Source: a virus. From it: a stretch of DNA of 64,000 bases. The notes below the pieces were generated by a model. That model worked only from the letters and a program-made list of their open reading frames with translations, had not been told where the DNA came from and ran no database searches. This document shows positions 46,872 through 62,060 of the stretch, piece by piece (the stretch's first letter is position 1; each line of letters begins with the position of its first letter). The DNA is taken from IMG/VR virus record IMGVR_UViG_3300042896_000283, positions 1-64,000 of that record, one strand, 5' to 3'. The position numbers and the translations under genes are program-made.

Positions 46872-47549
46872 ATGATATCAGTTCTTACCATAACTTACAA
46901 AAGACATCACCTTCTAGAAGAAGCTATTCAATCATTTTTGAATCAATCTTTTCTTTCAGAAGGTGAAATGGTAATTATTAATGATAACCCTGATGTAGAT
47001 TATATATATGATCACCCCAGGGTTAGAATTATTAATCATAAGGAAAGATTTCCATCTATAGCTGCTAAGCTTGAGTGGGGATATAGACAATGTAAATATG
47101 ATTACATCTATAGACTAGATGATGATGATCTTCTTACACCTTGGGCTCTTAATAATGCAAAGGCAGATATATTAGCTAATCCTGGATTTGAAATTTATAG
47201 AAGTGAAGGAATGTATTTCTTTATGAATAATAAGTTCGAGAAAGAAAGCTCTAATATAAACAATGGAAACATATATACCAAAGCTTATTTAGGTAGAATT
47301 ACATGGCCAGATAAGAGTGGTAATGAAGATGATGACATTACATTCCACCATGGTGGTACAATATATGAATCAAAGTTAAAACATACAATGATTTATAGAT
47401 GGGGAATGGGAACATTCCATATATCAGGATTAGGAATACAATCTAATCAAGTTATATTAGATCATGCAGATAAAGTGTTAGATGATACAAAAGGAGAAAT
47501 TATTCTTCATCCACATTTTAAACATGATTATTATAGTCAAATCAAATAA
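46872..47549 (+). CDS. GT2-family glycosyltransferase
   Basis: ISVLTITYKR, IIND, YRLDDDD. Confidence 0.85.
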   Translation: MISVLTITYKRHHLLEEAIQSFLNQSFLSEGEMVIINDNPDVDYIYDHPRVRIINHKERFPSIAAKLEWGYRQCKYDYIYRLDDDDLLTPWALNNAKADILANPGFEIYRSEGMYFFMNNKFEKESSNINNGNIYTKAYLGRITWPDKSGNEDDDITFHHGGTIYESKLKHTMIYRWGMGTFHISGLGIQSNQVILDHADKVLDDTKGEIILHPHFKHDYYSQIK

Positions 47550-47606: not shown

Positions 47607-47639
47607 AAAAAAGCCCCTCTTAATAGAAGGGCTTTTTTT
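47607..47639. terminator. Bidirectional terminator at strand convergence
   Basis: A6-GCCC...GGGC-T7. Confidence 0.8.
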
Positions 47640-47796
47640 ATTTTGATAATTTCTTAGCTTTCATTGGTTGCTGAGCACTTTTTCTATTTCTAATCAGGTC
47701 AGCTTCTTTCATGTAGTTCCCACTAATAGGTTTAGGAGGAGCCACCTTTGGAGCCTTTCTTGGTGCTCCAGATTTCTTAGCTTTACCAGCTGTCAT
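47638..47796 (-). CDS. Small Lys/Pro-rich protein (52 aa)
   Basis: Manual translation MTAGKAKKSGAPRKAPK... Confidence 0.65.
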   Translation of the reverse strand: MTAGKAKKSGAPRKAPKVAPPKPISGNYMKEADLIRNRKSAQQPMKAKKLSK

Positions 47797-47800
47797 AGAT

Positions 47801-48163
47801 TTACTTGCAGCCATACTTGCATTTCTTTACAGAAGTTCCTGATTTAGCTTTCATTGCACCACCATTTTTCTTATATCCCATTTTATTTCTAACAGGTGTA
47901 GATAATTTTCCAAGACCAACTTTATCAGAAGGAACAGATTTTAAAGAAACACCAGTTTTAGCTTTTTTTACAGGACCACCATTTTTTCTAGTTAGATATT
48001 TAAAATCTTCAGGATGTTTTTTCTCATCTTCTTTTGAGATGACTACACCTACAGCTTTACCTTTGTTAGCTTTTGCATCTTTTATATCTGTAGGAGTTTT
48101 TTTAAAACTAGTTGATGTAGTTTTCTTAGCAGTAATTCCTGCTTGTGCTTTTTTAATTGCCAT
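47801..48163 (-). CDS. Lys-rich protein with KxGG repeats
   Basis: RKNGG, KKNGG. Confidence 0.7.
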   Translation of the reverse strand: MAIKKAQAGITAKKTTSTSFKKTPTDIKDAKANKGKAVGVVISKEDEKKHPEDFKYLTRKNGGPVKKAKTGVSLKSVPSDKVGLGKLSTPVRNKMGYKKNGGAMKAKSGTSVKKCKYGCK

Positions 48164-48230
48164 GATTACATTAATATATTGTTAGTATTAGTTGTTGGTA
48201 AATAACCAAAGAAGTTATTCAGTTTTTTTC

Positions 48231-48509
48231 TTAACAGTTCCATTTTCTCAAAGATTTATTGATTCTTGAATTAGGATCTTTTGCTGTCTTAGCACTTGTA
48301 AGCTTCTTCTTCATACCTGACATTCTACTACAAAATGACTTACGTCTTCCTGCAGCTTTACTTCCAGCTTTAAGTTTAGAAGGCTTAGTAGTTACAGCTG
48401 TCTTAAGTTTGCTTCCAGGATGTTGCTTTCTATATGAAGCCACTCCCTTAGCATTTAGACCACCAGAAGAATTCTTTCCTTCTTTCTTTTGCCATGCTGC
48501 TGTTGCCAT
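48231..48509 (-). CDS. Basic protein (DUF6321-like)
   Basis: GGLNAKG...RRKSFCSRM...SLRKWNC. Confidence 0.75.
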   Translation of the reverse strand: MATAAWQKKEGKNSSGGLNAKGVASYRKQHPGSKLKTAVTTKPSKLKAGSKAAGRRKSFCSRMSGMKKKLTSAKTAKDPNSRINKSLRKWNC

Positions 48510-48790
48510 TATTTCTTAGATTTAGCTTTAATCTTTTTCTCTTGAACTAACATTTGTTTAGTAGGTTTCTTTCCAGATCCTTTATTAGCTCTTATGTTAT
48601 CCCATAATCCACGTTTAGATGTACTACCATCTGCACGTTTAATCATACCACCAGATTTTAATGTGCTTCCTTTAAAGGGGCCTTTCTTCTTGATTAAAGG
48701 ACCATTAGGAACAGGTGTTATCTTACCACCTTTACGTAATACACCAGGGCCTACATAAGCTGTAGCATTCTGAGGATTAAGCTTAGACAT
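48509..48790 (-). CDS. Lys-rich protein with KxGG repeats
   Basis: RKGG, KSGG, RGLWDNIRA. Confidence 0.7.
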   Translation of the reverse strand: MSKLNPQNATAYVGPGVLRKGGKITPVPNGPLIKKKGPFKGSTLKSGGMIKRADGSTSKRGLWDNIRANKGSGKKPTKQMLVQEKKIKAKSKK

Positions 48791-49110
48791 TATTTCTTCT
48801 TAGCTATTTTACGAAGTGTGTGAGCAAGAGCTTTTCTTCGAGGAGTACAAGTTGCTTTAGTTTCAGGTGTACAATATCCTTTATGAGCAGGATTTATTGC
48901 TCCTTGAATCCAGTTTTTTTTTACTTTACCACCAGCTTTCATCTTTGTAGCACCAAGTTGTTTATCTTTTACAAGATGAGCTTTACCTTTTGCACCAGCT
49001 AATGTTTTCTTTTGTACTTTTGTGAATGCTCCATTAGGATCTACAGGACCCACTCGTTTGTTTGATGCTTTAAGTCCAGTTAGACTTCCACCTTTTGTTT
49101 TAGTTGCCAT
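48790..49110 (-). CDS. Lys-rich protein with KxGG repeats
   Basis: TKGG, KAGG, NWIQGA...CTP...CTP. Confidence 0.7.
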   Translation of the reverse strand: MATKTKGGSLTGLKASNKRVGPVDPNGAFTKVQKKTLAGAKGKAHLVKDKQLGATKMKAGGKVKKNWIQGAINPAHKGYCTPETKATCTPRRKALAHTLRKIAKKK

Positions 49111-49633: not shown

Positions 49634-49924
49634 TTATGAATTATCCAAATTTATTTCAAATGTTATTACTGAACTTGTTTTAATTGATTTACTCATATCA
49701 ACTCTTATTTTAAACATATTACAAAACTTAAGTATTTCTTCTATAACCATATTATTATACTTAGGAAGACTACAAGCTATTCTGAATCTATATGATTCTA
49801 AAGTTTTAGTTATCTCTAAGCTACATAATTCATCAACAGAAGATATAATACCCTCCAAATGAGCAAGAAATGTTTCATCATTATCTTGCATCAATTTTGG
49901 AAAGTATTTTCTGTTTATTTCCAT
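49634..49924 (-). CDS. Hypothetical protein
   Basis: TAATG-coupled. Confidence 0.65.
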   Translation of the reverse strand: MEINRKYFPKLMQDNDETFLAHLEGIISSVDELCSLEITKTLESYRFRIACSLPKYNNMVIEEILKFCNMFKIRVDMSKSIKTSSVITFEINLDNS

Positions 49925-50349
49925 TATGACAATGTTAATCTGTATAATGTTTGAGCAGCTTCTCCACTTAGAGATTGCGCAATATTTTCAATGTCTGGCA
50001 TATTGTTAGCTTCTCCATATTCTTCAAGATCACTAGCAAATGTTACTAACTCTCTTACCACTTGATTAGGCATACCTGTAGAATAATCTTTTAAAGCATC
50101 AATTTTATATGCTCTAACTCTTTTTCCTGTATATCCCATAATCTTTTCTACAATCTCATCTTGTAAGTCTGCCACTTTATCATAAATGGTTCCTAAAGCT
50201 GAATGTTCAGCAAATGATGTAGTTTGAAAATGTAATAAGTGTAATTCTTCATGGAAGTATGAAAGCTTACCAGCTATTGTTTCTAATGTTAAACTAGAAC
50301 TTCCTTTTGATTCCATCATTTCTTCTGGAAATAGGGATTTTAATGCCAT
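49924..50349 (-). CDS. Dps/ferritin-like protein (DUF5856-like)
   Basis: HLLHFQTTSFAEHSALG..YD...DEIVE..MG; YRLTL. Confidence 0.8.
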   Translation of the reverse strand: MALKSLFPEEMMESKGSSSLTLETIAGKLSYFHEELHLLHFQTTSFAEHSALGTIYDKVADLQDEIVEKIMGYTGKRVRAYKIDALKDYSTGMPNQVVRELVTFASDLEEYGEANNMPDIENIAQSLSGEAAQTLYRLTLS

Positions 50350-50365: not shown

Positions 50366-50548
50366 TTAAGGAGCTACTGTAGTAGTAGTGGTAGTTGTAT
50401 AATTACAACATTCTTTAGCATCTATTTCTTTCCAATTTCCAACCTTCGGTTTAAATGCTTGTACAATTAAACTACTTGATACTATACGCCCTGAACCATC
50501 AAAACGTACATAAGCTTTAAGCTTATTATTATTATTACTTCTAGCCAT
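50366..50548 (-). CDS. Small protein with C-terminal Thr7 tail
   Basis: LKAYVRFDGSGRIV...ECCNYTTTTTTTVAP. Confidence 0.85.
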   Translation of the reverse strand: MARSNNNNKLKAYVRFDGSGRIVSSSLIVQAFKPKVGNWKEIDAKECCNYTTTTTTTVAP

Positions 50549-50550
50549 GA

Positions 50551-50736
50551 TTATACAGGTAATGTAGTAGTGGTTGTAGTAGTAGGAACGTAGTTACAGC
50601 ATTCATATGCTAAAATCTCACGCCATTTACCAACTTTTGGCTTATTTTTTCTAAGGATTAAGCTTCCTGCAACTATTCGGCCAGATCCATCGAATCTGAC
50701 AAAAGCCTTTAAAGGTCTTGAATCAATGCTTCCCAT
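50551..50736 (-). CDS. Paralogous small protein with C-terminal Thr7 tail
   Basis: LKAFVRFDGSGRIV...ECCNYVPTTTTTTTLPV. Confidence 0.85.
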   Translation of the reverse strand: MGSIDSRPLKAFVRFDGSGRIVAGSLILRKNKPKVGKWREILAYECCNYVPTTTTTTTLPV

Positions 50737-50753
50737 TTGTTTTAAATTTAGGG

Positions 50754-51770
50754 TTAATAGTTTAGGTTATATTTTTGTTTTAGTTCATTAAGTTTAGTTG
50801 CATAGAACCAGGTGCAATATTTTTTTGATCTTTCATCATTAAGAATAACATTTAAGTTAGCATCTTTTGTTGGATCAGTTCCCATATGATATTTACCTTT
50901 GTAAAAGGCTGGGTAACCATTTCCTGTCTCAGAAACTATTCCTGCATTATGAAAGATTGTATGTGTATCTAATTTGATAATAGGATCTGTAGCCCAAGCA
51001 AATGCTAATTCAGGCACCACTCTTGTTTCTTGTTCTCTAAACCATAGGTTCCATAAAACTGCCCACATATCTGCACACCAACTTTGATATCCAGAATTCT
51101 CATCTTTAAAGAACTCTCTATTTATTTTTTGTAAATATGTTCTTATAAGGATACAATCATTCATCACCTTACTCCAGAAGTTTGCATCTACATTCTTTAA
51201 TAAATATTGTGCTCCTCCTGAATGATCATTATTAGCTTCAGCTATTTCTCTACTTATTCCTATAATACTAGCAAGTTCTCCAAGGATATCTCTACTCTTG
51301 TATTCTTCTAGCTTCTCTGGAATCACTTGATGTATCTTACTATCAAAATACTTAGCATTGATATAGCTATTTGTATCTGATAAGTAGTTAATATCATCCT
51401 CTAAGAATTTATCTAGATTGAAATCCTTCATAAATAGAATATCACTATCACAATAGAAGATAGCTTTTTCATTCAGTTCTGGATGTTTTTTAAAATGTTT
51501 CCAAAGAACATATGGTCTTAGTACAGGAATATAGATTCCTAATAACTGATTTAGATTATCTTCATCTGCATAGTAATGAAACTCTGCTTCTGGATATAGA
51601 TCTTCTATCTGTTTCCACTTATCTCTATTCTCTCTTCCTTTAGGAGTGAATATAACAGATATTGCTTTATCAGAATGTCCTATTTCCTTTAAGCTCTCAA
51701 GCCAAAGATTTACTTGCCATGTATAGTAAATATCACTAGGACACGCTTGTAAAAATTTTAAATCTTTCAT
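50754..51770 (-). CDS. GT-A glycosyltransferase resembling plant peptide O-glycosyltransferases (HPAT/GT95, SERGT1/GT96)
   Basis: YYTWQ, YIPVLRPYVL, YCDSDILF (DxD), WCADMWAV, IFHNA. Confidence 0.7.
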   Translation of the reverse strand: MKDLKFLQACPSDIYYTWQVNLWLESLKEIGHSDKAISVIFTPKGRENRDKWKQIEDLYPEAEFHYYADEDNLNQLLGIYIPVLRPYVLWKHFKKHPELNEKAIFYCDSDILFMKDFNLDKFLEDDINYLSDTNSYINAKYFDSKIHQVIPEKLEEYKSRDILGELASIIGISREIAEANNDHSGGAQYLLKNVDANFWSKVMNDCILIRTYLQKINREFFKDENSGYQSWCADMWAVLWNLWFREQETRVVPELAFAWATDPIIKLDTHTIFHNAGIVSETGNGYPAFYKGKYHMGTDPTKDANLNVILNDERSKKYCTWFYATKLNELKQKYNLNY

Positions 51771-51798
51771 AATGTAGTTGGTTTTTTGTTTTTATTCT

Positions 51799-51936
51799 TT
51801 ATATAGGTGCAACTGTTGTAGTTGTAGTTGTCGTACATTTAGCTGTTACACATATTAATTTTTCTAATTCTTTAGATATTGTCCATAGGAGATTACTTTG
51901 TGTACTCCAACCTATTTGTCTTGATGGTATAGCCAT
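51799..51936 (-). CDS. 45-aa protein: fibre-type anchor plus Thr7 tail
   Basis: Not in ORF track; MAIPSRQIGWSTQSNLLWTISKELEKLICVTAKCTTTTTTTVAPI. Confidence 0.85.
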   Translation of the reverse strand: MAIPSRQIGWSTQSNLLWTISKELEKLICVTAKCTTTTTTTVAPI

Positions 51937-51948
51937 TTTTTATTTTTA

Positions 51949-53424
51949 TTAAACTATTGTTAATATTCCTAAATTTTTCCAAACAGCACCAGTTGGTAAA
52001 CCAGCTGGACTTGTTGGAATATTCATAATTGATAAGTTGTTTACAAATGTAGTGCCACCCATATTAGCAGTTATATTACTACCAACAATAAAAGTATTAG
52101 CATAACTACTTGATATAGTATTATATCCACCACCTAAAATTGCTGAAACATATCCAGAATTATTATTATTTTTACCTCCTCCAACAAATGTATAAAAACC
52201 AGCTGAAACATTATTAAATCCTCCACTTACTGTTCCGTAATTTCCAGAAGCAGTATTGGTACTACCTCCACTAACTGACGAAACCGCTCCAGAAGCAATA
52301 TTATTTTTACCGCCACTTACTACTGAACTATAATTTGAACTGGAATTTGCTTGTCCTCCACCAATAGAAGACCAACCGCCAGATGACACATTTCCAACTC
52401 CACCACTCACTGTGGCAAATCCAGCACTTACAGTATTAGATTTACCACCTCCAACAATAGAATATCCACTATAAGCGTGATTACCAACGCCTCCACCAAC
52501 TGTTGATCCAAAACCCGATGATAAATTACTTCTACCTCCACCAATTGTTCCAAAACTATAAGAAGCAGAGTTGCTACATCCACCTCCAATTGTAGATTTA
52601 TCTCCAGAAGAAGTGTTTCCATATCCACCACCTACTGTTGAAGCATAAGAAGAAGCTAAATTGTGATAACCTCCACCTACTGTTGAAAATGTACAAGAAG
52701 AAGTATTATTTTGACCACCCCCTATCATAGAATAATAACCAGAAGCATTATTAGAACTACCTCCAGAAATTACTGAACGAGTACCAGAAGCAATATTTGA
52801 AGCACCTCCACCAATAAAAGATTGATTACCAGAAGCAGTATTGAAAATACCACCACCAATTGTTGAATAATTATAAGAAGCAGTATTATTTTTACCTCCA
52901 GATATTGTTGAAAGAATACCAGAAGCAATATTGTATAAACCACCTCCTAAAAAAGAACCATACGCACTTGATAAATTTGCTCTCCCTCCTACAATTGTAG
53001 AAAGATAGCCAGTTGATTGATTGTTAGTTCCTCCAGAAATTATAGTTCCATAATTATAAGCAAGATTATTAAAACCACCACCTATTGTTGTACCCTGACT
53101 ACAAGCAATATTACCAGCACCCCCGCCAATTGTAGCATAATAATTAGAAGATATATTATTTTTACCTCCTCCAATTACTGAAAAATTTGAAGTAGCATTA
53201 TTATACGAACCTCCTCCAATAGTAGCATTTAACCCACTCGCATCATTAGTACCCAATACTGGTTGAATACCAGTAGCATTAGCATTATATTCAAATGGAC
53301 CTGATCCACCAGGAGTAGGAACAACAGAAGCTGTTACCTTTGTTAAATATTCTATTTGTTTAGCAATTTGCCATAATAGGTTTGATTCTGTTCCCCAACC
53401 TATTTGTTTACTTGGTATAGCCAT
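51949..53424 (-). CDS. Gly/Ser/Asn-rich beta-solenoid fibre protein
   Basis: Many 14-aa repeats like SGNYSTIGGGxxNTA; N-terminal MAIPSKQIGW module. Confidence 0.8.
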   Translation of the reverse strand: MAIPSKQIGWGTESNLLWQIAKQIEYLTKVTASVVPTPGGSGPFEYNANATGIQPVLGTNDASGLNATIGGGSYNNATSNFSVIGGGKNNISSNYYATIGGGAGNIACSQGTTIGGGFNNLAYNYGTIISGGTNNQSTGYLSTIVGGRANLSSAYGSFLGGGLYNIASGILSTISGGKNNTASYNYSTIGGGIFNTASGNQSFIGGGASNIASGTRSVISGGSSNNASGYYSMIGGGQNNTSSCTFSTVGGGYHNLASSYASTVGGGYGNTSSGDKSTIGGGCSNSASYSFGTIGGGRSNLSSGFGSTVGGGVGNHAYSGYSIVGGGKSNTVSAGFATVSGGVGNVSSGGWSSIGGGQANSSSNYSSVVSGGKNNIASGAVSSVSGGSTNTASGNYGTVSGGFNNVSAGFYTFVGGGKNNNNSGYVSAILGGGYNTISSSYANTFIVGSNITANMGGTTFVNNLSIMNIPTSPAGLPTGAVWKNLGILTIV

Positions 53425-53438
53425 TATATATGTTTTTA

Positions 53439-54479
53439 TTAATAAATTTTTGTTAATGTAAAGTTTCTTGAAAATATTGAATTACCAGCAACATTTGTAT
53501 CCCATTCTGCTGTAATTAAAAGTGTATTACTAACAGTTGTGTCAAATGTTGTAGTATTGATATTAGTTAATACATATCCTTCAAATTGAGTTCCTCCATT
53601 TCTTATATAAGAAAATAATCCTCCTGATGAAATTGATGCCACTGTAGGTCCTCCTGTTGTTCTAATTGTAAAATACAAATTCATTATCCAAGACTTACTA
53701 GTTGCAGCAGCCATATCAATTAATCCTGTATCAGCTAAAAGAATACCAGCCAATGTTCTCACTCTAATACGTAAGTTCGCAGAAGATCCACAAGTAACTA
53801 ATCCATCTAATGCACATATAAAACTATCTCCACTAGTAAAAGAATTTGCAGGAACAGTTAATGAACCTACACCTGTTCCTATTATTGTTGTTTCTACTGC
53901 TGTACCTGTTACAGGTGCTCCATCAGCTGTTTGAGCATATAAACCTGGTAATCCTGCAGGACCTTGAGCACCTGTATCACCTTTAACTCCTTGTATTCCC
54001 TGTGGACCTTGTTCTCCTTGAATACCTTGAGGACCAGCAGGTCCTTGATCTCCTTGAGGTCCTTTTATATCTCCAGCATCAAACCAGTTTGTTCCATTCC
54101 AACTCATTAATGATCCATCAGATAAAAGAATCCATGCATCACCAACATTAGCTCCAGGCATACTTCCTGCACCAGCTAAGAAAGCTGCATAATCTGCGTA
54201 GCTTCCTAATATAGTTACAGAGTTACCAGCAGTTCCTTGAGGACCCTGATCACCCTGTGTTCCTTGTATTCCTTGTATTCCTTGGTCTCCTTGCATACCT
54301 TGCATACCTTGCTCACCCTGAATTCCTTGTGGACCTTCAGGACCTATTGGACCCTGTGGACCAGGAACACCTGGACCAGCAATATCTGATATAAGTTTAT
54401 CAAGATTAAGCCACCCTTTGTATCCTGTACAAGGTTTGCAAAGTTGTTCCCAAAATCCTGCTTTAATAAATGTTGCCAT
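53439..54479 (-). CDS. Collagen-repeat fibre protein
   Basis: Two Gly-X-Y tracts; start re-called at MATFIKAGFWE; TACCTTTG at 54505-54498. Confidence 0.85.
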   Translation of the reverse strand: MATFIKAGFWEQLCKPCTGYKGWLNLDKLISDIAGPGVPGPQGPIGPEGPQGIQGEQGMQGMQGDQGIQGIQGTQGDQGPQGTAGNSVTILGSYADYAAFLAGAGSMPGANVGDAWILLSDGSLMSWNGTNWFDAGDIKGPQGDQGPAGPQGIQGEQGPQGIQGVKGDTGAQGPAGLPGLYAQTADGAPVTGTAVETTIIGTGVGSLTVPANSFTSGDSFICALDGLVTCGSSANLRIRVRTLAGILLADTGLIDMAAATSKSWIMNLYFTIRTTGGPTVASISSGGLFSYIRNGGTQFEGYVLTNINTTTFDTTVSNTLLITAEWDTNVAGNSIFSRNFTLTKIY

Positions 54480-54559
54480 GATTAATGTTGTAAGTATCAA
54501 AGGTATAAGTTTTATACTTACATACAATGACTGTTGTTAAATTAAAATAACTAAAAAAA

Positions 54560-54784
54560 TTATCTTACATAATGTAAAATAATTGAAGGAGTTATTGTTG
54601 CTATTATATCTTTATAATCAAATCCTTTGTAATCTATTTGATCTTTAATTTCTTTACCTAAAGCAACTAGAAATACAATTCCTATGCTATATAAATCATT
54701 TAGAAAACATTGACTAATAATGAATATTACAAATCCATATATAAAATGGTTTGCTTTATCTAATGGTATCAAAGGTATTTTCAT
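54560..54784 (-). CDS. Small membrane protein (DKxxH, VanZ/YfiM-like)
   Basis: DKANHFIYG...GKEIKD...DIIAT. Confidence 0.65.
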   Translation of the reverse strand: MKIPLIPLDKANHFIYGFVIFIISQCFLNDLYSIGIVFLVALGKEIKDQIDYKGFDYKDIIATITPSIILHYVR

Positions 54785-54918
54785 TATCCTTGTCCATTAT
54801 AAATCTTCTTGTATTTCTTAGAAGATTTAAGTTTTGATGTTTGAGATTTAGCGTGCACACCTGGTCTGCTCACTTTAATCTTTACTGCTTTTTCTGATGT
54901 GTTGGTTGCTTTTGCCAT
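54784..54918 (-). CDS. Small basic protein (44 aa)
   Basis: Manual translation MAKATN...RPGVHAK...YKKIYNGQG. Confidence 0.65.
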   Translation of the reverse strand: MAKATNTSEKAVKIKVSRPGVHAKSQTSKLKSSKKYKKIYNGQG

Positions 54919-54919
54919 G

Positions 54920-55399
54920 TTAAAATAAATTATATTCTAAAACTATACCATATCCACTAGGATTGTTTGGTTGTACGTAATAATTAATACCTGTACTAAA
55001 CTTAGTAAACTCAATCATTAAGTTTGTATATATAACAGGTTCTTTTAATGTAAATTTTATAGATTGTATACCAGCATATCCATGTATCTCAAATGATTTC
55101 TTGCTTTTGATAATCTCTTTATTGATATCAATTACACTTTTTTGATAGAATATGATTGAATCTTTTATACCTAATTGATTCTTAAACTCAATTTCTTTAT
55201 TCTGATAATTTTTGATTCTTACTTCTTGTTCCTTGATGATGTTCTTAGCAAAATCATAACGTACAAGATCAGTAGCAACCTTCCTAGCAACATTTTCACT
55301 AAGGGTGACAATAGAATCATTTTTCTGGGTATTTTGTCCAAATATACTATTTGTTAGTAACAATATAGTAATTACTATTATTAAATTTTTAAGATACAT
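54920..55399 (-). CDS. Secreted coiled-coil protein, spanin-like
   Basis: Signal peptide, coiled coil, C-terminal beta strands ending YNLF; in lysis cluster. Confidence 0.5.
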   Translation of the reverse strand: MYLKNLIIVITILLLTNSIFGQNTQKNDSIVTLSENVARKVATDLVRYDFAKNIIKEQEVRIKNYQNKEIEFKNQLGIKDSIIFYQKSVIDINKEIIKSKKSFEIHGYAGIQSIKFTLKEPVIYTNLMIEFTKFSTGINYYVQPNNPSGYGIVLEYNLF

Positions 55400-55905
55400 C
55401 TTGCTTCTGTTATATTACGATTACCACTTATTTCTTTTAACTTAGAAGAAACACCTCCATTAGAAAGTTTATATTTTCTTTTTAAATAAATAATACTCTT
55501 ATTACTTAATACATCTAATCTAAATTCATTTAAATCAATAACCTTGTATGTAGGATTTAAATTTCCTTTTTTAGAATTTGCTATTTTTAATAATGCATAT
55601 TCAGTATGTTTATATCCAGTTGTATCAGGACCTCTGTTACCACCAATAGATACATTATAGTTATCTTTTTTAGATATCCATTTTTTATCAACTATAAATG
55701 ATTCTTCTTCATAAGCTTCTTTTAAAGAATCAAAAAAACAAAGTATTTCAATTTTAAAATTTAACTTTCCATATTTTAAAATAGCTTTTTTTAATTTATC
55801 TCCAGATCCTAAATATCCATCATTCAAGTTTTTAGTAGAATGTACTCCTATATAAGTTTTATCATTTACTAAATTTTTAGTTTGATATGTAAAATGATGA
55901 ATCAT
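55381..55905 (-). CDS. GIY-YIG (Seg-like) homing endonuclease
   Basis: YQTKNLVNDKTYIGVHST...GYLGSG...KYG..NF...YNVSIGG. Confidence 0.9.
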   Translation of the reverse strand: MIHHFTYQTKNLVNDKTYIGVHSTKNLNDGYLGSGDKLKKAILKYGKLNFKIEILCFFDSLKEAYEEESFIVDKKWISKKDNYNVSIGGNRGPDTTGYKHTEYALLKIANSKKGNLNPTYKVIDLNEFRLDVLSNKSIIYLKRKYKLSNGGVSSKLKEISGNRNITEARCILKI

Positions 55906-56222
55906 TGTGAATATCTATCTGTGAAGTACTTTTGAAGCCCACTAACAGGCAAGCTATCAATAATCCTAATTTGTACATATTCTTTTTGTTTAATGATTTT
56001 GATTCTATTAACAATCACTGTATCCACTTTTGATAAACTATCAATAATCTTACTAGATTCATGATCTTTCTCTTCAAGAATAAGAATTTTATTCTCTAGC
56101 TTTTTAGTTTGTTCTATTAGAATAGTATTTTTATCTTGGTTATATAGTGTAAAGAATATCCATATAATGATAATAATCACTGCCAAGTACTGATCTTTTA
56201 AATAATCTAATACCTTATTCAT
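55902..56222 (-). CDS. Inner-membrane spanin-like protein
   Basis: N-terminal TM plus coiled coil, next to lysin. Confidence 0.55.
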   Translation of the reverse strand: MNKVLDYLKDQYLAVIIIIIWIFFTLYNQDKNTILIEQTKKLENKILILEEKDHESSKIIDSLSKVDTVIVNRIKIIKQKEYVQIRIIDSLPVSGLQKYFTDRYSQ

Positions 56223-56617
56223 TAGTTAGTAATGTTTATAAAGATCTTTTCTATCTTTGATGTTGCTTTTAATTTTGTAAACAATGTTTTATATGTAGCT
56301 CTAGAGTTACCAATAAAGTTTAATGATTTACTACTACCTACAAGAATACATCCTTCTGTGTCAGTTGATTTGTTTCCACTGTGGATTCTTACGCCTTCAT
56401 ATCCAGGTACTGAAAGTAACAAAGGCATATATTGCTGAAAGTGATTAGAGAATGTAATTGCTATCTCATATTTTCCATAAGGAATAGCTGTAACATTTTG
56501 AATCTTCTTATCTCTAACTTTATCCTCTAACGTATAACACACAAATTTCCCATCAATAGAAAGTTCTCCTATTGTAGAATCATCTGTAAATATCTTTCTT
56601 TTAAGTTCTAGTATCAT
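56222..56617 (-). CDS. DUF5675-family protein, candidate endolysin
   Basis: STIGEL...YTLED...IPYGKY...IHSGN..DTEGCILVG. Confidence 0.75.
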   Translation of the reverse strand: MILELKRKIFTDDSTIGELSIDGKFVCYTLEDKVRDKKIQNVTAIPYGKYEIAITFSNHFQQYMPLLLSVPGYEGVRIHSGNKSTDTEGCILVGSSKSLNFIGNSRATYKTLFTKLKATSKIEKIFINITN

Positions 56618-56625
56618 AGTTTATA

Positions 56626-56799
56626 TTAATTACCTGTTACATCATGATCTTTGGCAAAGTATCCAAATATTGCAATAGCGATAGCTAAACCAAATTTAGG
56701 CCAATCTTTTTTTAAATCTATTTCATCTGAAGCCAATGGTTGTACAGCTAACATACATGCTAGTATAATACCCATTGAGGTTGTTTTCCAGTTTTTCAT
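56626..56799 (-). CDS. Holin-like protein (57 aa)
   Basis: Not in ORF track; MKNWKTT...two TM...AKDHDVTGN; directly upstream of lysin. Confidence 0.7.
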   Translation of the reverse strand: MKNWKTTSMGIILACMLAVQPLASDEIDLKKDWPKFGLAIAIAIFGYFAKDHDVTGN

Positions 56800-57119
56800 T
56801 ATGGTTTAAGATTTTTATATACAATAGACAAATATTGAATAAGTGCACCAAGAGATAATACAATTGCTATTGTCCAAGTGAACCTTTTCTTAAATTCTTC
56901 TTGTTTCTGTATCTTATCTTCTAATTGTTTAATTTTTTCTTTAAGGTCATGTATATCAGCAACAAATCCCCCTGTTTTTGTTAATGCATTTCCTAATATT
57001 GCGTCTACAACTTGTGTTAATTTTGTATCTATAGAAGTCATTTTCTCCTCTAGATCGTACAGGCGAGTATCCATGCTTTTAAGTTCTTTTTCTACGTGTT
57101 TTTCAAATGCGTTTTCCAT
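56799..57119 (-). CDS. Coiled-coil protein with C-terminal TM (XhlA/holin-like)
   Basis: Heptads plus terminal TM; first gene of lysis cassette. Confidence 0.6.
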   Translation of the reverse strand: MENAFEKHVEKELKSMDTRLYDLEEKMTSIDTKLTQVVDAILGNALTKTGGFVADIHDLKEKIKQLEDKIQKQEEFKKRFTWTIAIVLSLGALIQYLSIVYKNLKP

Positions 57120-57282
57120 AAGGGGAGAGAGTGGGTGTTATTATAACATATATACGATTTATGAGTGTGTTCGTAATATTGCAATGATTGTACCAATTTA
57201 TATACAACAAATATAAATCTTAATTCTCATATAATAAAATGGTTATGCTATATATTCTGCATAATATAGCATAACCTAAAAC

Positions 57283-57489
57283 TTATTTTAATCCATATTT
57301 AATCCACCTATACCAAACTCTTTCATGGATGTAGTATTGTATAGGTTTGTAAAGTAATTCTGCTATTCCAAATGCTGCTCCTATCTTAACAGATCCTGTT
57401 ATAACCAGCATTATTGTAAAGCCAATTAGTGTACTTAGAAGTCTATAACTAATTGTTTTTGCTATGTGTCTTTTCTTTTCAACATTCAT
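57283..57489 (-). CDS. DUF2061-like membrane protein
   Basis: AKTISYR...YYIHERVW. Confidence 0.8.
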   Translation of the reverse strand: MNVEKKRHIAKTISYRLLSTLIGFTIMLVITGSVKIGAAFGIAELLYKPIQYYIHERVWYRWIKYGLK

Positions 57490-57722
57490 TAGTCTAAGAT
57501 TACAACATCACCTTTCCAACTAATCTTATTTGGGTTACATGTTAAGTGATGTTTATTTACAAGTTCTTGTCTTGAGCTATCCCATACATCATCTCTTGTT
57601 GTATGAGTTGGAACATTAATAACTATATTAGCACATATATGTTCTACACCATCAATTAATATTCTCCAGAATGTATGATTATCATCACACAATGTATTAT
57701 ATCTAATTTGTACTAAACTCAT
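57489..57722 (-). CDS. Hypothetical protein
   Basis: Translationally coupled within sulfation operon. Confidence 0.7.
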   Translation of the reverse strand: MSLVQIRYNTLCDDNHTFWRILIDGVEHICANIVINVPTHTTRDDVWDSSRQELVNKHHLTCNPNKISWKGDVVILD

Positions 57723-58120
57723 AGCTTTCCATCTTTACGCATTTGTTCTCTGATCTTTGTAGCAGATATATCTCCTATCTCTGTAGGTGGAATATGTTCT
57801 ATAATATCATAACCAACACCTCTTCCAAACTCTACAGAACATATATCTGGAACTATCATGATTTTGATTCTTCCTTCTTCTATAAGAGAATGATAATGTG
57901 CATTTATGTTATCATATACTTCTTCTGCTGTAAAAGGATTCTTTTCATTCACTTGTCCATCACGAATGCATATAAGCACATTCTTTCCTTCATCTAGAGC
58001 TCCTTTAAACAAAGCTTGGTGCCCAAGGTGCAATGGTTGCCATCTTCCAATAAACATTGCAAACTGTCCTTCTTTAGAAGGAATTGATGATTCTACGTGT
58101 ATCTTTTTAGTCCAACTCAT
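57719..58120 (-). CDS. HxGH nucleotidyltransferase, candidate minimal ATP sulfurylase
   Basis: GRWQPLHLGH, NPF, GRGVGY, ISATKIR. Confidence 0.75.
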   Translation of the reverse strand: MSWTKKIHVESSIPSKEGQFAMFIGRWQPLHLGHQALFKGALDEGKNVLICIRDGQVNEKNPFTAEEVYDNINAHYHSLIEEGRIKIMIVPDICSVEFGRGVGYDIIEHIPPTEIGDISATKIREQMRKDGKL

Positions 58121-58560
58121 TTTATTAGTTTTAAAATTTTAGCAATTGATTCTTCTGGTGTATCATCTGTAGTATCTACATCAATAAAGTTCTCTAATGG
58201 AGCTTCATAATTTGCTACTCTGAAATGATCTCTTTCTCTAGGTGAGTCTGTATGAACATATAGTTCTATAAGATCTGCACCAAGCATAGATTTAAGTTCT
58301 TCTCTTTGCCATCTGTAAGGAGCAATAAGAGAAACCACCACTGTGTAATCTTGGTTATATAAATAGTGTGCTATCTTCTGTGCACCTTTAACATTATCTA
58401 TTCTTCCTTGTTCAGAGAAATCTACATTTAATGTAAGGGCTCTTAGATCATCACCATCTATATGAAATACTTTTCCATATTTTTCTAGTTCTTCTTTTAG
58501 TAATTTAGCCAACACTGTTTTACCATGTGAAGGCTGTCCTGTAAACCAATATACTGCCAT
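58117..58560 (-). CDS. cysC: Adenylylsulfate (APS) kinase
   Basis: WFTGQPSHGKT, IDGDDLR, FSEQGRIDN, SLIAPY, YEAP. Confidence 0.88.
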   Translation of the reverse strand: MAVYWFTGQPSHGKTVLAKLLKEELEKYGKVFHIDGDDLRALTLNVDFSEQGRIDNVKGAQKIAHYLYNQDYTVVVSLIAPYRWQREELKSMLGADLIELYVHTDSPRERDHFRVANYEAPLENFIDVDTTDDTPEESIAKILKLIK

Positions 58561-59429
58561 TATTTCAATGCTTTAATTATATCCTCACTATTAAATATAT
58601 TTCCTAGCTCTGTGTATGGACATCTAGAGATATCTTCGAATAATGGAAGTTTCTGTAAATATGCATTATCAAAGTTTAATTCTTTATCTGGAGTGTTAGC
58701 ATCTAAATTAGCATGCATATCATAACCAAACACTTTAGAACTTGTTCCTATCCAACATACAAGACTTGGTAATCCTAGAGCTGCAGCAATATGCATAGCA
58801 GATGAATCAATAAGAAGTCTTCTTTGTGCTAATGATAATAAAACAGCTATACTTCTGAATGAATCAAGAGCTCCTACTGTATCTGCATACATTGGTTGAT
58901 CCTCACGTTTGATATGTACAATTGTATAATCTTTTTTGTAATGTTGTATTACATCATTAATTACTGGAGCTGGAATATCTCTAACCCAACTATAGTTCAA
59001 TGGTTGATCTATTGGCCCACCATTAGGCTGTATAGCCATAATAGGTTTTTCTAATTGGTAGAATGGAGCAAAGTATTCCACTTCTGCTTTAGAGATAAAC
59101 AATTCAGGTAGTTCATTATTATATGGTACCTCACATAACTTACACCAGATTTCAATTAAATGTTTTGATTCTGTTAAGTAGTCTGATGTTGTATAAGGAT
59201 CTGTAATAAATACCTTTGCATCCTTACCTCCTATGTAATCTTTATATAATCCTAATGTAGTTCCATGAACTATCACCTTATTTACATTTGGATTACCAAT
59301 AAATACATCTGGGTAAGATGTAAGAACAATTACATTTGCTTTAGGGTGTTCAGTTCTAATAGCTTTTAATACAGCTGTAGATAAGATATTCTTACCTAAG
59401 CCTCCTGATATATCAAATATTATATTCAT
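58560..59429 (-). CDS. GT9-like (GT-B) glycosyltransferase
   Basis: Start re-called at MNIIFDISGGLGKNI; DSSAMHIAAALG. Confidence 0.8.
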   Translation of the reverse strand: MNIIFDISGGLGKNILSTAVLKAIRTEHPKANVIVLTSYPDVFIGNPNVNKVIVHGTTLGLYKDYIGGKDAKVFITDPYTTSDYLTESKHLIEIWCKLCEVPYNNELPELFISKAEVEYFAPFYQLEKPIMAIQPNGGPIDQPLNYSWVRDIPAPVINDVIQHYKKDYTIVHIKREDQPMYADTVGALDSFRSIAVLLSLAQRRLLIDSSAMHIAAALGLPSLVCWIGTSSKVFGYDMHANLDANTPDKELNFDNAYLQKLPLFEDISRCPYTELGNIFNSEDIIKALK

Positions 59430-59439
59430 AGTTGTTGGT

Positions 59440-60261
59440 TTATACGTATCCAAATTTCTTAAAGAACCAAGGATATGTGTTTTTAATTGATTGACAGTTT
59501 TCATATCCTAAGATTTCTTCAAAATCATCAGGCTTTCTTTCAAACTTAGATCTTAGTTTATGATCTCCATAGATACCATGTATAGCATCATTCTCATGTG
59601 TATGCTGTGTAACAGTTTCAAAATTGTGACCTTCATAATATGGAAGTTCCATATACTCATAAAAACGTCTCATTTCTTGTTCAGGGAAATCCATTAAGTC
59701 TTCATAACGAATAAATAATACATTCTTATCTATTCCTTGATCAAACATATCTTTTAGTCTATCCATAGATATACCAACTGGTGGTCCATCTGCCCATAGA
59801 TTAATTCTTTTTTGAAGAGTGGTACCTACTAATTGATTAGCATTTTGAATATGATTTTCTTGTGTAGGATTTTTACGAAAGTTTTTCTCCATAGAAGCAT
59901 AGACAGCACGTACATCTCTAATCATACATACCACTTTAGGAGCTATCATAAACTCACTAGCAAGATTAAAATGTATTCCCCATCCTCTATTCTTATCTAA
60001 TACATAAGGTTTATCTGTAAGGGCATTAAAATATCCATGCATTGCATTATGACAAAATCCTATAAATGCATTTTTCATTAGTTCAGCATCTTGTGCTTTA
60101 ACTTCTGATGAATGGTTATAGTTTGCTTTTGCTCCTAGAAGTAAATCTAAGAAACCTGATGTAGGTGTACAATGGAAATCTGGATTATCTGCTACAATAT
60201 TTTGCAGAAGAGTAGATCCTGCTCTAGGAAGAGAGGAGTTAAAAAAGATTCTTTTCTTCAT
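59440..60261 (-). CDS. PAPS-dependent sulfotransferase
   Basis: 5'-PSB SLPRAGSTLL; 3'-PB IRDVRAVYAS; IRYEDL. Confidence 0.9.
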   Translation of the reverse strand: MKKRIFFNSSLPRAGSTLLQNIVADNPDFHCTPTSGFLDLLLGAKANYNHSSEVKAQDAELMKNAFIGFCHNAMHGYFNALTDKPYVLDKNRGWGIHFNLASEFMIAPKVVCMIRDVRAVYASMEKNFRKNPTQENHIQNANQLVGTTLQKRINLWADGPPVGISMDRLKDMFDQGIDKNVLFIRYEDLMDFPEQEMRRFYEYMELPYYEGHNFETVTQHTHENDAIHGIYGDHKLRSKFERKPDDFEEILGYENCQSIKNTYPWFFKKFGYV

Positions 60262-60280
60262 AATTAATTGATTTTAGTTA

Positions 60281-60328
60281 CAAAGATAAATAAAAAAAGG
60301 ATAAGATTACTTAAAACCTTATCCTTTT
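60281..60328 (-). terminator. Terminator followed by promoter of the sulfation operon
   Basis: AAAAGGATAAG...CTTATCC-T7, then TATCTTTG at 60288-60281. Confidence 0.65.
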
Positions 60329-60350
60329 AATAAATTTATTGAAAAAATAC

Positions 60351-60674
60351 TTATGCTACAGTAGTTGTAGTAGTTGTAGTATCTTTTGCAATTTGCAATT
60401 CAGCAATCAAAGCATCAATAAGAGGTTTTAAAGCTTCATCATCTTTTACAGTGAATGAATCTTTATTTACCCATCTTACATCCTTATAACCAAAAAGGTT
60501 AATAGCATGAAAAGGAGAAATTAATGCAGGATTTTCTGCAGGTTTTTTAGCAAAGATTGCCTCTACTAAAGGAGTAACAGTAGTTAATGTATCTGTAGAT
60601 ACTTTTACTGATAACTCTTTTGAATTGATTTGGGTTTCGCCATATCCAAAGATATGAATTGTGAAATTTTCCAT
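60351..60674 (-). CDS. Protein with C-terminal Thr7 tail
   Basis: Ends KDTTTTTTTVA. Confidence 0.8.
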   Translation of the reverse strand: MENFTIHIFGYGETQINSKELSVKVSTDTLTTVTPLVEAIFAKKPAENPALISPFHAINLFGYKDVRWVNKDSFTVKDDEALKPLIDALIAELQIAKDTTTTTTTVA

Positions 60675-60716: not shown

Positions 60717-61952
60717 TTAAGGAACTATTGTTAATGTAGTTCCATTTCTCCAAACTGAACCAGAGGGTAAACCAGCACTTGATGTTGGAATGTTTTTAAT
60801 TGATAGATTATTTACAAATGTAGCACAATGTCTATCGGCAGTTATATAAGAACCAGAAATTACAACAAGTTCAAAAGAAGAAGTAGAATTATTACGACCT
60901 CCTACAATAGATGAATGACTTGTAGAAACAGAGTTGTAATAACCTCCCCCAATAAATGAGCATTGACCAGAAGCGATATTACATTGACCACCTCCTACTG
61001 TTGCGTGATATGTAGAAGCAATGTTAGATTGACCACCTCCTACTGTTGTTGCAGTACAAGAAGCAGTATTAAGAAAACCACCCCCAACTGTTGAAAATTG
61101 ATAAGAAGAAATATTATCAGAACCGCCACCTACTGTTGATTTGTTTCCAGAAGCAGTATTATATACACCGCCACTAATTGTTGCTCTACTATAACTTGCA
61201 CTGTTATAACCACCGCCCCCAACTGTTGAAGAACTATCACAAGTAGTATTTTTATAACCACCACTAATTGTTGAGAATTTACCAGAAGCAAAATTTTGAC
61301 TTCCACCACCTACTGTTGATAAATTAGAAGAAGCAGTATTTAGACAACCTCCAGATACTGTTGATAAACAACCAAGTGAAGTGTTAGATTGACCACCGCC
61401 TACCGTAGATAGACAACCAAATGTAGCGTTATTTTGACCACCACCTACTATAGAAGCATATCCAGAAGCTGTATTGCTTCCACCGCCACCTACAAAAGCT
61501 ATTCTATTAGATGCAGTATTACCTTCTCCTCCAACAATTGCCGAGTTAATACCAGAAGCTGTATTACCAACACCTCCACTTACAGTTGAAGCTTCATTAG
61601 AAGCAATATTAAAAATTCCACCTCCAATTGTTCCATAATTACCAGAACTTTCATTACAACAACCTCCTCCAATTACTGAATTAAGACCACAAGAAGTATT
61701 GCAACTTCCACCACCAATTGTAGAATAGTTACCATTTGCTTCATTAATAATACCACCACTAATTACAGCATTTAATCCACTTGCGTCATTACCACCTAAT
61801 ACAGGTTCTATACCTGTACCATTAGCATTATATTTTAATGGACTAGATGCAGCTGGAGGAGATAATGATGTTATTAATTCATCAAGATTTAACCAATGAT
61901 CATATCCTTTTTGTTTCTTTTCCCAGAATCCTGGTTTAATAAATGTAGGCAT
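60717..61952 (-). CDS. Gly/Ser/Asn-rich beta-solenoid fibre protein, paralog of 51949..53424
   Basis: 14-aa repeats; start re-called at MPTFIKPGFWE; TAACTTTG at 61999-61992. Confidence 0.8.
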   Translation of the reverse strand: MPTFIKPGFWEKKQKGYDHWLNLDELITSLSPPAASSPLKYNANGTGIEPVLGGNDASGLNAVISGGIINEANGNYSTIGGGSCNTSCGLNSVIGGGCCNESSGNYGTIGGGIFNIASNEASTVSGGVGNTASGINSAIVGGEGNTASNRIAFVGGGGSNTASGYASIVGGGQNNATFGCLSTVGGGQSNTSLGCLSTVSGGCLNTASSNLSTVGGGSQNFASGKFSTISGGYKNTTCDSSSTVGGGGYNSASYSRATISGGVYNTASGNKSTVGGGSDNISSYQFSTVGGGFLNTASCTATTVGGGQSNIASTYHATVGGGQCNIASGQCSFIGGGYYNSVSTSHSSIVGGRNNSTSSFELVVISGSYITADRHCATFVNNLSIKNIPTSSAGLPSGSVWRNGTTLTIVP

Positions 61953-62060
61953 AATGTTTATATTTTTATTGAATAGCTTAACTAATGTAAGCAAAGTTAA
62001 TTATTAATTATTTAGTATGAAAGCATGTATATTAAATATCTGGTATAATATAGCTATTGA

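Follow-up and report, generated by a model that had tools for sequence, protein, structure and literature searches.

A glycosyltransferase linked to seven-threonine tracts and a fibre-linked sulfation cassette in a crAss-like phage: two separable systems that probably modify tail appendages

The locus described here lies in the IMG/VR virus record IMGVR_UViG_3300042896_000283, of which positions 1 to 64,000 were analysed (the window). The source genome is 113,094 bp long with direct terminal repeats, and the window is its first 64 kb. The phage is classed as crAss-like on the strength of a 2006-residue product, encoded beyond the window, with a match to the Crassvirus muzzle protein (PF25731, 3.9e-33); its host, guessed from its relatives, is probably a member of the Bacteroidota. 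A megablast search of the region against 50,697 phage records gave zero matches. The region contains a glycosyltransferase (GT) gene flanked by small genes whose products carry a run of exactly seven threonines (Thr7, or T7 in motifs), and a cassette of sulfate-activating and sulfate-transferring genes beside genes for fibres. An original prediction, made from the letters of the DNA, had joined these elements into one pathway; all the genes that it named are present where it had placed them, on the minus strand. We consider it fairly probable that the region instead holds two separable phage-encoded systems, Modules A and B below, that modify the phage's own tail appendages. The glycosyltransferase and Thr7 genes are as follows.

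46872-47549, plus strand: GT2-family glycosyltransferase (PF00535, 3.1e-12)
50366-50548, minus strand: 60-residue Thr7 protein; conserved 50-residue N-terminal module (KAYVRFDGSGR...KPKVGNW...ECCNY), then Thr7-VAP; C-terminus CCNY-T7-VAP
50551-50736, minus strand: 61-residue Thr7 protein, paralogue of the 60-residue protein (66% identity); C-terminus CCNYVP-T7-LPV
50754-51770, minus strand: predicted glycosyltransferase of GT-A fold, GT8-like, phrog_4417 (match 1.8e-55)
51799-51936, minus strand: 45-residue Thr7 protein; fibre N-terminal anchor module (MAIPS.QIGW...), then Thr7; C-terminus KC-T7-VAPI
60351-60674, minus strand: 107-residue protein, member of the fibre and sulfation module; C-terminus KD-T7-VA

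As predicted, exactly seven threonines stand near the C-terminus of the products of four minus-strand genes, three of which flank the GT gene, and one product shares its N-terminal module with a fibre: residues 1-32 of the 45-residue protein are 69% identical to the fibre encoded at 51949-53424 (E 1e-13). The four genes are confirmed, but the set is not limited to them. The whole genome contains 16 threonine runs (five residues or more) in 11 open reading frames (ORFs), all on the minus (late) strand, and 13 of the 16 are exactly T7. The bearers include the muzzle protein (three runs), a 629-residue protein (four runs) and several small proteins with T7 ends. Thr7 is often trailed by V/A/I-A-P, and Cys often precedes it. 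At the nucleotide level, the coding strand of the whole genome holds 29 copies of (ACN)6, where the reversed control gives 1 and 1. Each of the four Thr7 runs uses a different mix of ACA, ACT, ACC and ACG codons, and all four genes stop at TAA. The threonine runs therefore appear to be selected at the protein level, and to be neither slipped repeats nor recoding sites.

Other explanations for the runs were considered and set aside. A DNA repeat or slippage is ruled out by the mixed codons; Tandem Repeats Finder reported only a 9-nt, 2.4-copy array at 60360-60381. Stop recoding or readthrough beyond the tails is ruled out, as far as sequence goes, by the TAA stops and the short intergenic gaps that follow them, and we know of no TAA reassignment in crAss-like phages. 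The general O-glycosylation system of Bacteroidota hosts is periplasmic and acts on the motif D-S/T-A/I/L/V/M/T; only one of the tails, that of the 107-residue protein (KD-T-T), fits this motif, and the tailed proteins look cytoplasmic.

The GT has 771 homologues among 1.84 billion representative proteins. In an alignment of 86 rows, comprising the GT and 85 homologues of 30-48% identity, the two aspartates of the DxD motif (D108 and D110) and H274 are invariant, and an AlphaFold2 (AF2) model built on that alignment reached a pLDDT (predicted local distance difference test) of 97.2. Foldseek matched the model to glycogenin (E 2.3e-7). Structural alignment with VIA-align gave Z scores of 14.0 for LgtC (root-mean-square deviation 3.8, 239 residues aligned), 14.0 for glycogenin, 13.8 for the Skp1 alpha-galactosyltransferase, 13.6 for UGGT, 12.6 for GlyE and 11.0 for A64R, which glycosylates the capsid of PBCV-1. 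Judged by its model, the enzyme is a GT-A fold closest to GT8-type enzymes; the model is soluble and globular, and we read the enzyme as presumably cytoplasmic. The plant GT95/GT96 enzymes HPAT and SERGT1 had no entry among its matches in the PDB, which covers solved structures only. GT1-family genes were looked for in the phage genome and none was found. The GT2 family is present in 18 of 22 GT-bearing relatives as against 0 of 4 complete phages that lack the GT, counts that are not phylogenetically independent; the GT2 gene at 46872-47549 is thus a possible second enzyme of Module A.

That the GT and threonine tags should be distributed together was the check proposed with the original prediction, and it is borne out in related loci, in complete genomes and in unrelated lineages. 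A set of 80 related IMG/VR loci, with GT identities of 66-95%, contains 314 threonine runs, 219 of them exactly T7, and their density falls from 1.08 per kb at up to 1.5 kb from the GT to 0.02 per kb at more than 3 kb. Across complete genomes, 15 of 15 with the GT hold 12-52 copies of (ACN)6, jumbo phages with a GT of only 32-39% identity among them, whereas four complete phages without the GT hold 0, 0, 0 and 3.

The association recurs in unrelated phage lineages. In Enterococcus phages of the phiFL1A type, the GT homologue adjoins a protein of 319-401 residues (annotated as the major head protein in phiFL1A) and one of about 200 residues annotated as the major tail protein. Both end in T6-KP-T7 or similar in most of the Enterococcus phage and prophage loci (L083-L162), with near-identical T6-KP-T7-Q-A/G tails; the length of seven threonines thus recurs in a Firmicutes lineage. 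In Chryseobacterium phage MA9V-3, the two ORFs immediately before the GT have long Thr/Ser linkers that end in T6-LAPP and T6-AAPT. Members of the GT family also stand beside threonine-run proteins in Staphylococcus phage DH5, Clostridium phage phiCTP1 (T5-VAP-T4), Enterococcus phage nattely and Lactobacillus phage SAC12B (TTVAP repeats). Across these phages, a GT is genetically linked to Ser/Thr-rich tails of virion proteins. No mycobacteriophage was found among the 77 phage records that match the GT, so that, as far as sequence similarity tells, this family differs from that of the mycobacteriophages, the experimentally shown case of virion glycosylation.

The surroundings of Thr7 vary in a modular manner. 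A homologue of the 60-residue protein is present in 77 of the 80 related GT-bearing loci (6-kb flanks). In these relatives, either of the two N-terminal modules is followed by T7 and then by nothing, by tandem T7-VAP repeats or by variable Cys-rich domains of 80-450 residues, and one C-terminal domain occurs behind both types of N-terminal module. Because the same N-terminal modules and T7 carry differing distal parts, we regard Thr7 as the joint of modular appendage proteins. Many of the runs in the 80 loci are arranged as T7-[VAI]-[AT]-P decapeptide repeats, and a 688-residue protein of one relative (L058) has fourteen threonine runs, mostly in such repeats. By their sequences, the four Thr7 genes of the window would encode headless forms consisting of anchor and tag, and a putative glycan would be their distal part. 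The fibres add an observation of the same kind. Fibre 1 (51949-53424) and the 45-residue Thr7 protein share the MAIPS.QIGW module in a BLAST alignment, and the collagen-like fibre protein at 53439-54527 shares with fibre 2 (60717-61994), by eye and unaligned, an N-terminal module ATFIK.GFWE...WLNLD.LI, which would make two types of anchor, each combined with several different distal parts.

Threonine runs beyond the window also occur in larger proteins. The muzzle homologue (2006 residues; genome positions 87403-93423, locus L243 1404-7424, minus strand) has three runs between Cys-rich domains in its C-terminal 420 residues, and its C-terminus is T8-P. The 629-residue Thr7 protein (genome positions 98487-100376) is similar in part to residues 1767-1976 of this homologue. 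A 399-residue protein (genome positions 102679-103878, locus L243 16680-17879, minus strand) ends in T6-SSAPAS-T5-STLIP. Searches of PDB, Pfam and PHROG with this protein gave no hit, and a protein language model supplied a weak lead (ESM Atlas, 0.86) to the auxiliary capsid protein of crAss001; a head protein may thus be tagged too.

The fibre genes and the sulfation cassette of the window are as follows.

51949-53424, minus strand: fibre 1; N-terminal anchor module and about 25 strict 15-residue repeats, S-T-[IV]-G-G-G-x-x-N-x-A-S-G-x-x
53439-54527, minus strand: collagen-like fibre protein (Pfam Collagen 5.4e-16; tail-fibre PHROGs)
57283-57489, minus strand: DUF2061 small membrane protein (PF09834, 4.1e-16)
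57489-57722, minus strand: 77-residue protein inside the cassette; present in 22 of 80 cassette loci, no family hit
57719-58120, minus strand: 133-residue HxGH nucleotidyltransferase, NMNAT-like (PF01467, 1.1e-6; NMNAT, E 7e-6)
58117-58560, minus strand: APS kinase (PF01583, 1e-18; 68.2 bits against a cut-off of 21.1), short at 147 residues
58560-59429, minus strand: GT9-fold (heptosyltransferase-like) GT-B enzyme, 289 residues from M26
59440-60261, minus strand: sulfotransferase (Sulfotransfer_3; PF13469, 1.2e-14; 55.5 bits against a cut-off of 27), predicted to be PAPS-dependent
60295-60328, minus strand: terminator-like hairpin (14 pairs and a T run) between the 107-residue gene and the sulfotransferase operon
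60717-61994, minus strand: fibre 2; about 20 strict UspA1-head-like 15-residue repeats with the consensus given for fibre 1, 43% identical to fibre 1

The enzymes of this cassette had been correctly named: Pfam bears out the sulfotransferase, the adenosine 5'-phosphosulfate (APS) kinase and the HxGH nucleotidyltransferase, and the fold (AF2 model, VIA-align) bears out the GT9-like enzyme. APS kinase makes 3'-phosphoadenosine 5'-phosphosulfate (PAPS), the donor used by sulfotransferases. Across 35 homologues of the sulfotransferase, P12, R13, G15, S16, R115, D116, R118 and S123 are invariant; most of these residues fall in the stretches LPRAGST near residue 11 and R115-D116-x-R118...S123, which by eye resemble the two PAPS-binding motifs. 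A profile search of the PDB gave TPST1 (4.7e-9) and TPST2 (2.9e-6) as its nearest solved relatives, over residues 6-124, the PAPS-binding N-terminal half, only. It also matches, weakly (2.8e-5), NoeE, a Nod-factor sulfotransferase that carries the NCBIfam name of nodulation protein. The APS kinase has the P-loop GQPSHGKT and matches TIGR00455 at 2.4e-19, below the equivalog cut-off. It aligns with positions 2-84 of phrog_10255, a phage family of 230 residues, and the nucleotidyltransferase with positions 119-229; since both match halves of this family, a fused form of the two enzymes appears to exist in other phages. Searches for homology between the nucleotidyltransferase and ATP sulfurylase (Sat/CysD) found none, the matches being to NMNAT-type HxGH transferases only. 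By analogy with bifunctional PAPS synthases, which the adjacency and the fusion mirror, the nucleotidyltransferase may serve as a miniature ATP sulfurylase, or may partner the APS kinase in some other way.

The sequence of the GT9-fold enzyme supports its class only weakly (Pfam Glyco_transf_9 at E 0.017, which misses the cut-off); its most likely start, M26, matches the length of its homologues (about 291 residues). Its AF2 model (pLDDT 94) gave VIA-align Z scores of 22.7 to 3tov, 20.6 to WaaF, 20.1 to WaaC and 19.5 to TibC (255 residues; TibC 97-384), the next fold following at 10.6. Among its cysteines only C96 is nearly invariant in 46 homologues. The plant PSI-NDH supercomplex has a subunit (7f9o chain 6, 9grx chain 1, 7wff chain a) with the GT9 fold as well, at a Z score of about 17.7 to the model.

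The 107-residue protein gave no match in Pfam, PHROGs or ESM Atlas, and in NCBIfam a chance-level aspartate-kinase hit (E 0.0075). Residues 159-409 of fibre 1 match the UspA1 head of a trimeric autotransporter adhesin (PDB 3pr7, E 1e-20). On its domain content, fibre 1 is a phage fibre with a domain like the head of these adhesins and not an autotransporter, the YadA anchor being absent. A complex prediction for three copies of the C-terminal third of fibre 2 with the 107-residue protein scored 0.00 and is uninformative either way.

At least 167 relatives of the sulfotransferase occur in IMG/VR, their contigs ranging over 45-385 kb, and 80 of these loci were searched for neighbours within 10 kb. 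The GT9-fold enzyme was found in 71, the fibre repeat family in 69, the APS kinase in 62, DUF2061 in 52, the nucleotidyltransferase in 49, the 107-residue protein in 31 (in each case directly upstream of the sulfotransferase) and the phrog_4417 GT in only 6. Module B moves as one unit among phages of 45-385 kb. Among 22 close relatives that bear the GT, the sulfotransferase is present in 6, all of them among the 18 genomes that are at least 90% complete. The G-rich repeat domain of the fibre is found in exactly those 6 and in 0 of the 16 without the sulfotransferase, the others matching the N-terminal anchor only, and the 107-residue protein follows a similar course (5 of 6 as against 0 of 16). 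In the other direction, 4 of 10 complete phages that bear the cassette have no GT. The 107-residue homologues carry a Thr tail in 5 of the 6 loci with a GT and in 0 of the 25 whose 10-kb surroundings yielded no GT; there the tails are KDNLPA, KDNEPAPAP and the like. These tail counts and the co-occurrence of fibre repeats with the sulfotransferase indicate that the Thr7 tail goes with the GT, and the cassette with the fibre.

Homologues of the sulfotransferase were also found on 23 contigs of cellular genomes. Six Bacteroidota-type contigs hold a phage-like cassette. Of the remaining 17, at 41-50% identity, five have a neighbour of the adhesin type: on the chromosome of Synechococcus sp. MIT S9507 an adhesin with YadA_head and YadA_anchor lies 2 kb from the homologue, two more Synechococcus contigs hold tblastn matches to that adhesin, a Methylacidiphilales contig has a 2107-residue autotransporter adjoining the homologue, and on a Spartobacteria contig the gene that immediately follows the homologue encodes a YadA_head protein. 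Because such adhesins are rare, five of 17 looks above chance, as judged informally. Apart from the phage, these cellular homologues beside YadA-head and autotransporter adhesins (L266, the MIT S9507 chromosome, with L255 and L256) hint at an unrecognised sulfation of bacterial adhesins.

The scheme that we propose takes its gene identities, predicted folds and co-distributions from the analysis, and we infer every acceptor, donor and chemical step in it. In Module A, the soluble GT8-like GT would O-glycosylate the fixed-length Thr7 tracts inside the infected cell, using nucleoside diphosphate (NDP) sugars of the host, and the GT2 enzyme may assist. The tracts would serve as linkers or C-terminal tails, in the order virion-anchor module, T7 and then nothing, tandem T7-x-A-P or an exchangeable distal domain. 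Module B would consist of the fibre, the 107-residue protein, the sulfotransferase, the GT9-fold enzyme, the APS kinase, the mini nucleotidyltransferase and DUF2061, passed between phages in one piece. It would supply its own PAPS and act on the fibre's beta-roll repeats, which are of the UspA1/YadA-head type; glycosylation of these repeats by the GT9-fold enzyme would proceed as with TibC or Aah, and the sulfotransferase would sulfate the sugar, or Ser or Tyr directly.

Several points weigh against this scheme. The GT has no Pfam, NCBIfam or PDB sequence hit (Glyco_transf_8 is silent even at E<=10), phrog_4417 is annotated as 'unknown function', and the fold evidence covers its identity as a glycosyltransferase and nothing beyond. 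Genes for sugar-nucleotide synthesis (Epimerase, NTP_transferase) were not found in the phage genome. The fibres and their repeat domains carry no Thr7, and the GT9-fold enzyme is without the N-terminal barrel and the four-Cys iron finger of TibC. At 12 of the 17 cellular sulfotransferase loci the scanned neighbouring ORFs are only housekeeping genes or have no Pfam family. Many of the genomes counted are closely related, so that independent events are far fewer than the raw counts. DUF2061, as a membrane protein, hints at an envelope-linked step, and the co-inheritance of fibre and cassette fits equally well a cassette that acts on the host receptor of the fibre.

The last two points lead to the main rival for Module B, modification of the receptor. 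Here the cassette would alter the host lipopolysaccharide (LPS) core or capsule recognised by the co-inherited fibre, and so block superinfection or keep progeny from sticking to debris. GT9 enzymes are classically LPS-core heptosyltransferases (Z about 20 for WaaC and WaaF), the sulfotransferase has its weak match to NoeE, the cassette contains DUF2061, and receptor-modifying enzymes inherited together with a fibre would yield the same pattern of fibre and sulfotransferase. We nevertheless hold this explanation to be unlikely. The five adhesin-associated cellular loci point to a class of proteins and not to LPS genes, the nearest solved relatives of the sulfotransferase are protein-tyrosine sulfotransferases, and where GT9-fold enzymes lie next to adhesins, as TibC and Aah do, it is that adhesin which they glycosylate (PMC4358343).

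The single pathway of the original prediction, in which the GT primes Thr7, the GT9-fold enzyme and GT2 extend it and the sulfotransferase caps it to give a sulfated mucin-like coat, fares less well and has become improbable. The enzymes do lie within 14 kb, and were given as being on the same late strand (the GT2 gene is tabulated on the plus strand); the 107-residue protein beside the sulfotransferase does bear a Thr7 tail in this phage, and 18 of 22 relatives with the GT have the GT2 family too. The fourth Thr7 gene does stand beside the operon as described, but the terminator-like hairpin parts the two. The proposed chain breaks at both ends, since the cassette is absent from 12 of the 18 complete relatives with GT and Thr7, and the four of ten complete cassette phages without a GT lack the threonine runs too ((ACN)6 counts of 0, 0, 0 and 3). 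Nor is the cassette tied to Thr7: all 25 of the 107-residue homologues in cassette loci without a GT within 10 kb are without it, and the cassette co-varies instead with the UspA1-head-like repeat fibre and the 107-residue protein. The idea that the tagged proteins lie on the virion surface survives in part, as some are tail parts (the muzzle, fibre-anchor modules); the tags are on tail and appendage proteins, and a coat over the whole virion is not indicated.

That Thr7 is an unmodified flexible linker or recombination joint, with the GT acting on DNA, host polysaccharide or a small molecule, would suit its place exactly at the joint of exchangeable modules and the occurrence of one C-terminal domain behind two N-terminal modules, but it gives no reason for threonine runs to come and go with one GT family across unrelated phage lineages or for terminal tails with nothing to link, and we think it very improbable.

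The two-system reading can be carried further, into a joint proposal that we offer tentatively and consider rather doubtful as a whole. In it, a TibC-like GT9-fold enzyme and a TPST-like sulfotransferase, with a PAPS supply from the phage that includes a new 133-residue ATP sulfurylase, would build a sulfated fibre, and the same sulfotransferase family would sulfate autotransporter adhesins of Cyanobacteria and Verrucomicrobia. Separately, the GT8-like enzyme would read Thr7-V-A-P as a portable glycosylation signal in phages from Bacteroidota to Bacillota.

Other genes of the region lie around and between the two modules. Five tandem small ORFs at 47638-49110 (minus strand), of 58-120 residues, are extremely rich in Lys, Gly and Ala and gave no family hits; their products may be virion proteins that are internal or associated with DNA. 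The gene at 49924-50349 (minus strand), next downstream of the Thr7 genes, encodes a 141-residue protein that matches phrog_858 ('starvation-inducible transcriptional regulator', 3.7e-15); from the name of that family, we would guess it to be Dps/ferritin-like. A GIY-YIG (SegE-like) homing endonuclease gene (55381-55905, minus strand) sits among the late genes, between the fibre block and lysis-like genes. The latter, at 56222-57119 (minus strand), encode a DUF5675 protein (2.9e-34), a 57-residue hydrophobic protein and a 106-residue coiled-coil protein with a C-terminal hydrophobic stretch and a match to phrog_937 ('hemolysin'); the block looks like a lysis cassette placed between the two decoration modules.

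If Thr7 is the portable acceptor of a single unannotated family, self-glycosylation of virions would be widespread among phages of the gut and the environment, with crAss-like, jumbo, Enterococcus and Staphylococcus phages among them, and no longer a mycobacteriophage curiosity. This would matter for adsorption and for binding to mucus, for how antibodies recognise phages in therapy and for designing glyco-tagged particles, and the fixed length of seven together with the T7-x-A-P repeat provides a testable recognition rule. The fibre-linked cassette would, if our reading of it is true, be the first case of a bacterial virus sulfating its own particle; it also points to an unrecognised sulfation of autotransporter adhesins in bacteria, and the 133-residue nucleotidyltransferase is a candidate minimal ATP sulfurylase.

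Known systems resemble parts of this arrangement. With the GT8-clan enzymes that act on proteins or protein-bound glycans (glycogenin, the Skp1 galactosyltransferase, GlyE of serine-rich-repeat adhesins, and LgtC), the phage GT shares the fold (Z 12.6-14.0 over about 220-240 residues), the DxD motif and a soluble model. It differs from them in an identity of only 8-12%, in the silence of Pfam Glyco_transf_8 and in about 80 extra residues.

The closest precedent for Module A is found in mycobacteriophages. The C-terminal tails of capsid and tail-tube proteins of Che8, Corndog and Myrna are O-glycosylated (Freeman et al., 2023, Cell Host Microbe, as cited in PMC12619734, PMC11600133 and PMC11652166); within the literature searched, virion glycosylation has been established for mycobacteriophages only. 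The original prediction's statement that nothing of the kind had been described in a tailed phage is therefore outdated for glycosylation, and for sulfation it stands in that no paper on virion sulfation was found. The literature searched likewise yielded no relevant account of phage sulfotransferases, of sulfated virions, of poly-threonine proteins in phages or of DUF2061. In the mycobacteriophage systems, GTs lie near structural genes, the acceptors are C-terminal tails and modification takes place before lysis; the arrangement predicted for this phage is the same. The phage differs in its GT family, in the fixed T7 length and in the frequent V-A-P suffix. Its tags are on tail-appendage and modular small proteins, no tagged ORF being identified as a major capsid or tail-tube protein, and its probable host belongs to the Bacteroidota.

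With TPST1/2 and other Sulfotransfer_3 enzymes such as NoeE, the phage sulfotransferase has the PAPS-binding N-terminal half in common. Against TPST, residues 6-124 alone align, and the acceptor-binding half is unrelated. Sites sulfated by TPST are acidic, unlike the fibre repeats, which have no acidic residues near Tyr (5 Asp and Glu in 491 residues).

Finally, the GT9-fold enzymes TibC and Aah add heptose to serines of their respective adhesins, TibA and AIDA-I (PMC4358343). These pairs and the phage share a gene for a GT9-fold enzyme beside that of a repetitive, Ser-rich, beta-structured protein of adhesin type. The phage enzyme was not assigned to the BAHT family, as two defining features given in that study, the N-terminal beta-barrel (TibC residues 1-97) and the four-Cys iron finger, are missing; it may nonetheless work like a BAHT. 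It is coupled to a sulfotransferase and a PAPS supply, a coupling not described in the TibC study (PMC4358343). Its candidate acceptor is a fibre resembling the head of a trimeric autotransporter, whereas the acceptor of TibC and Aah is a beta-helix of the AIDA type.

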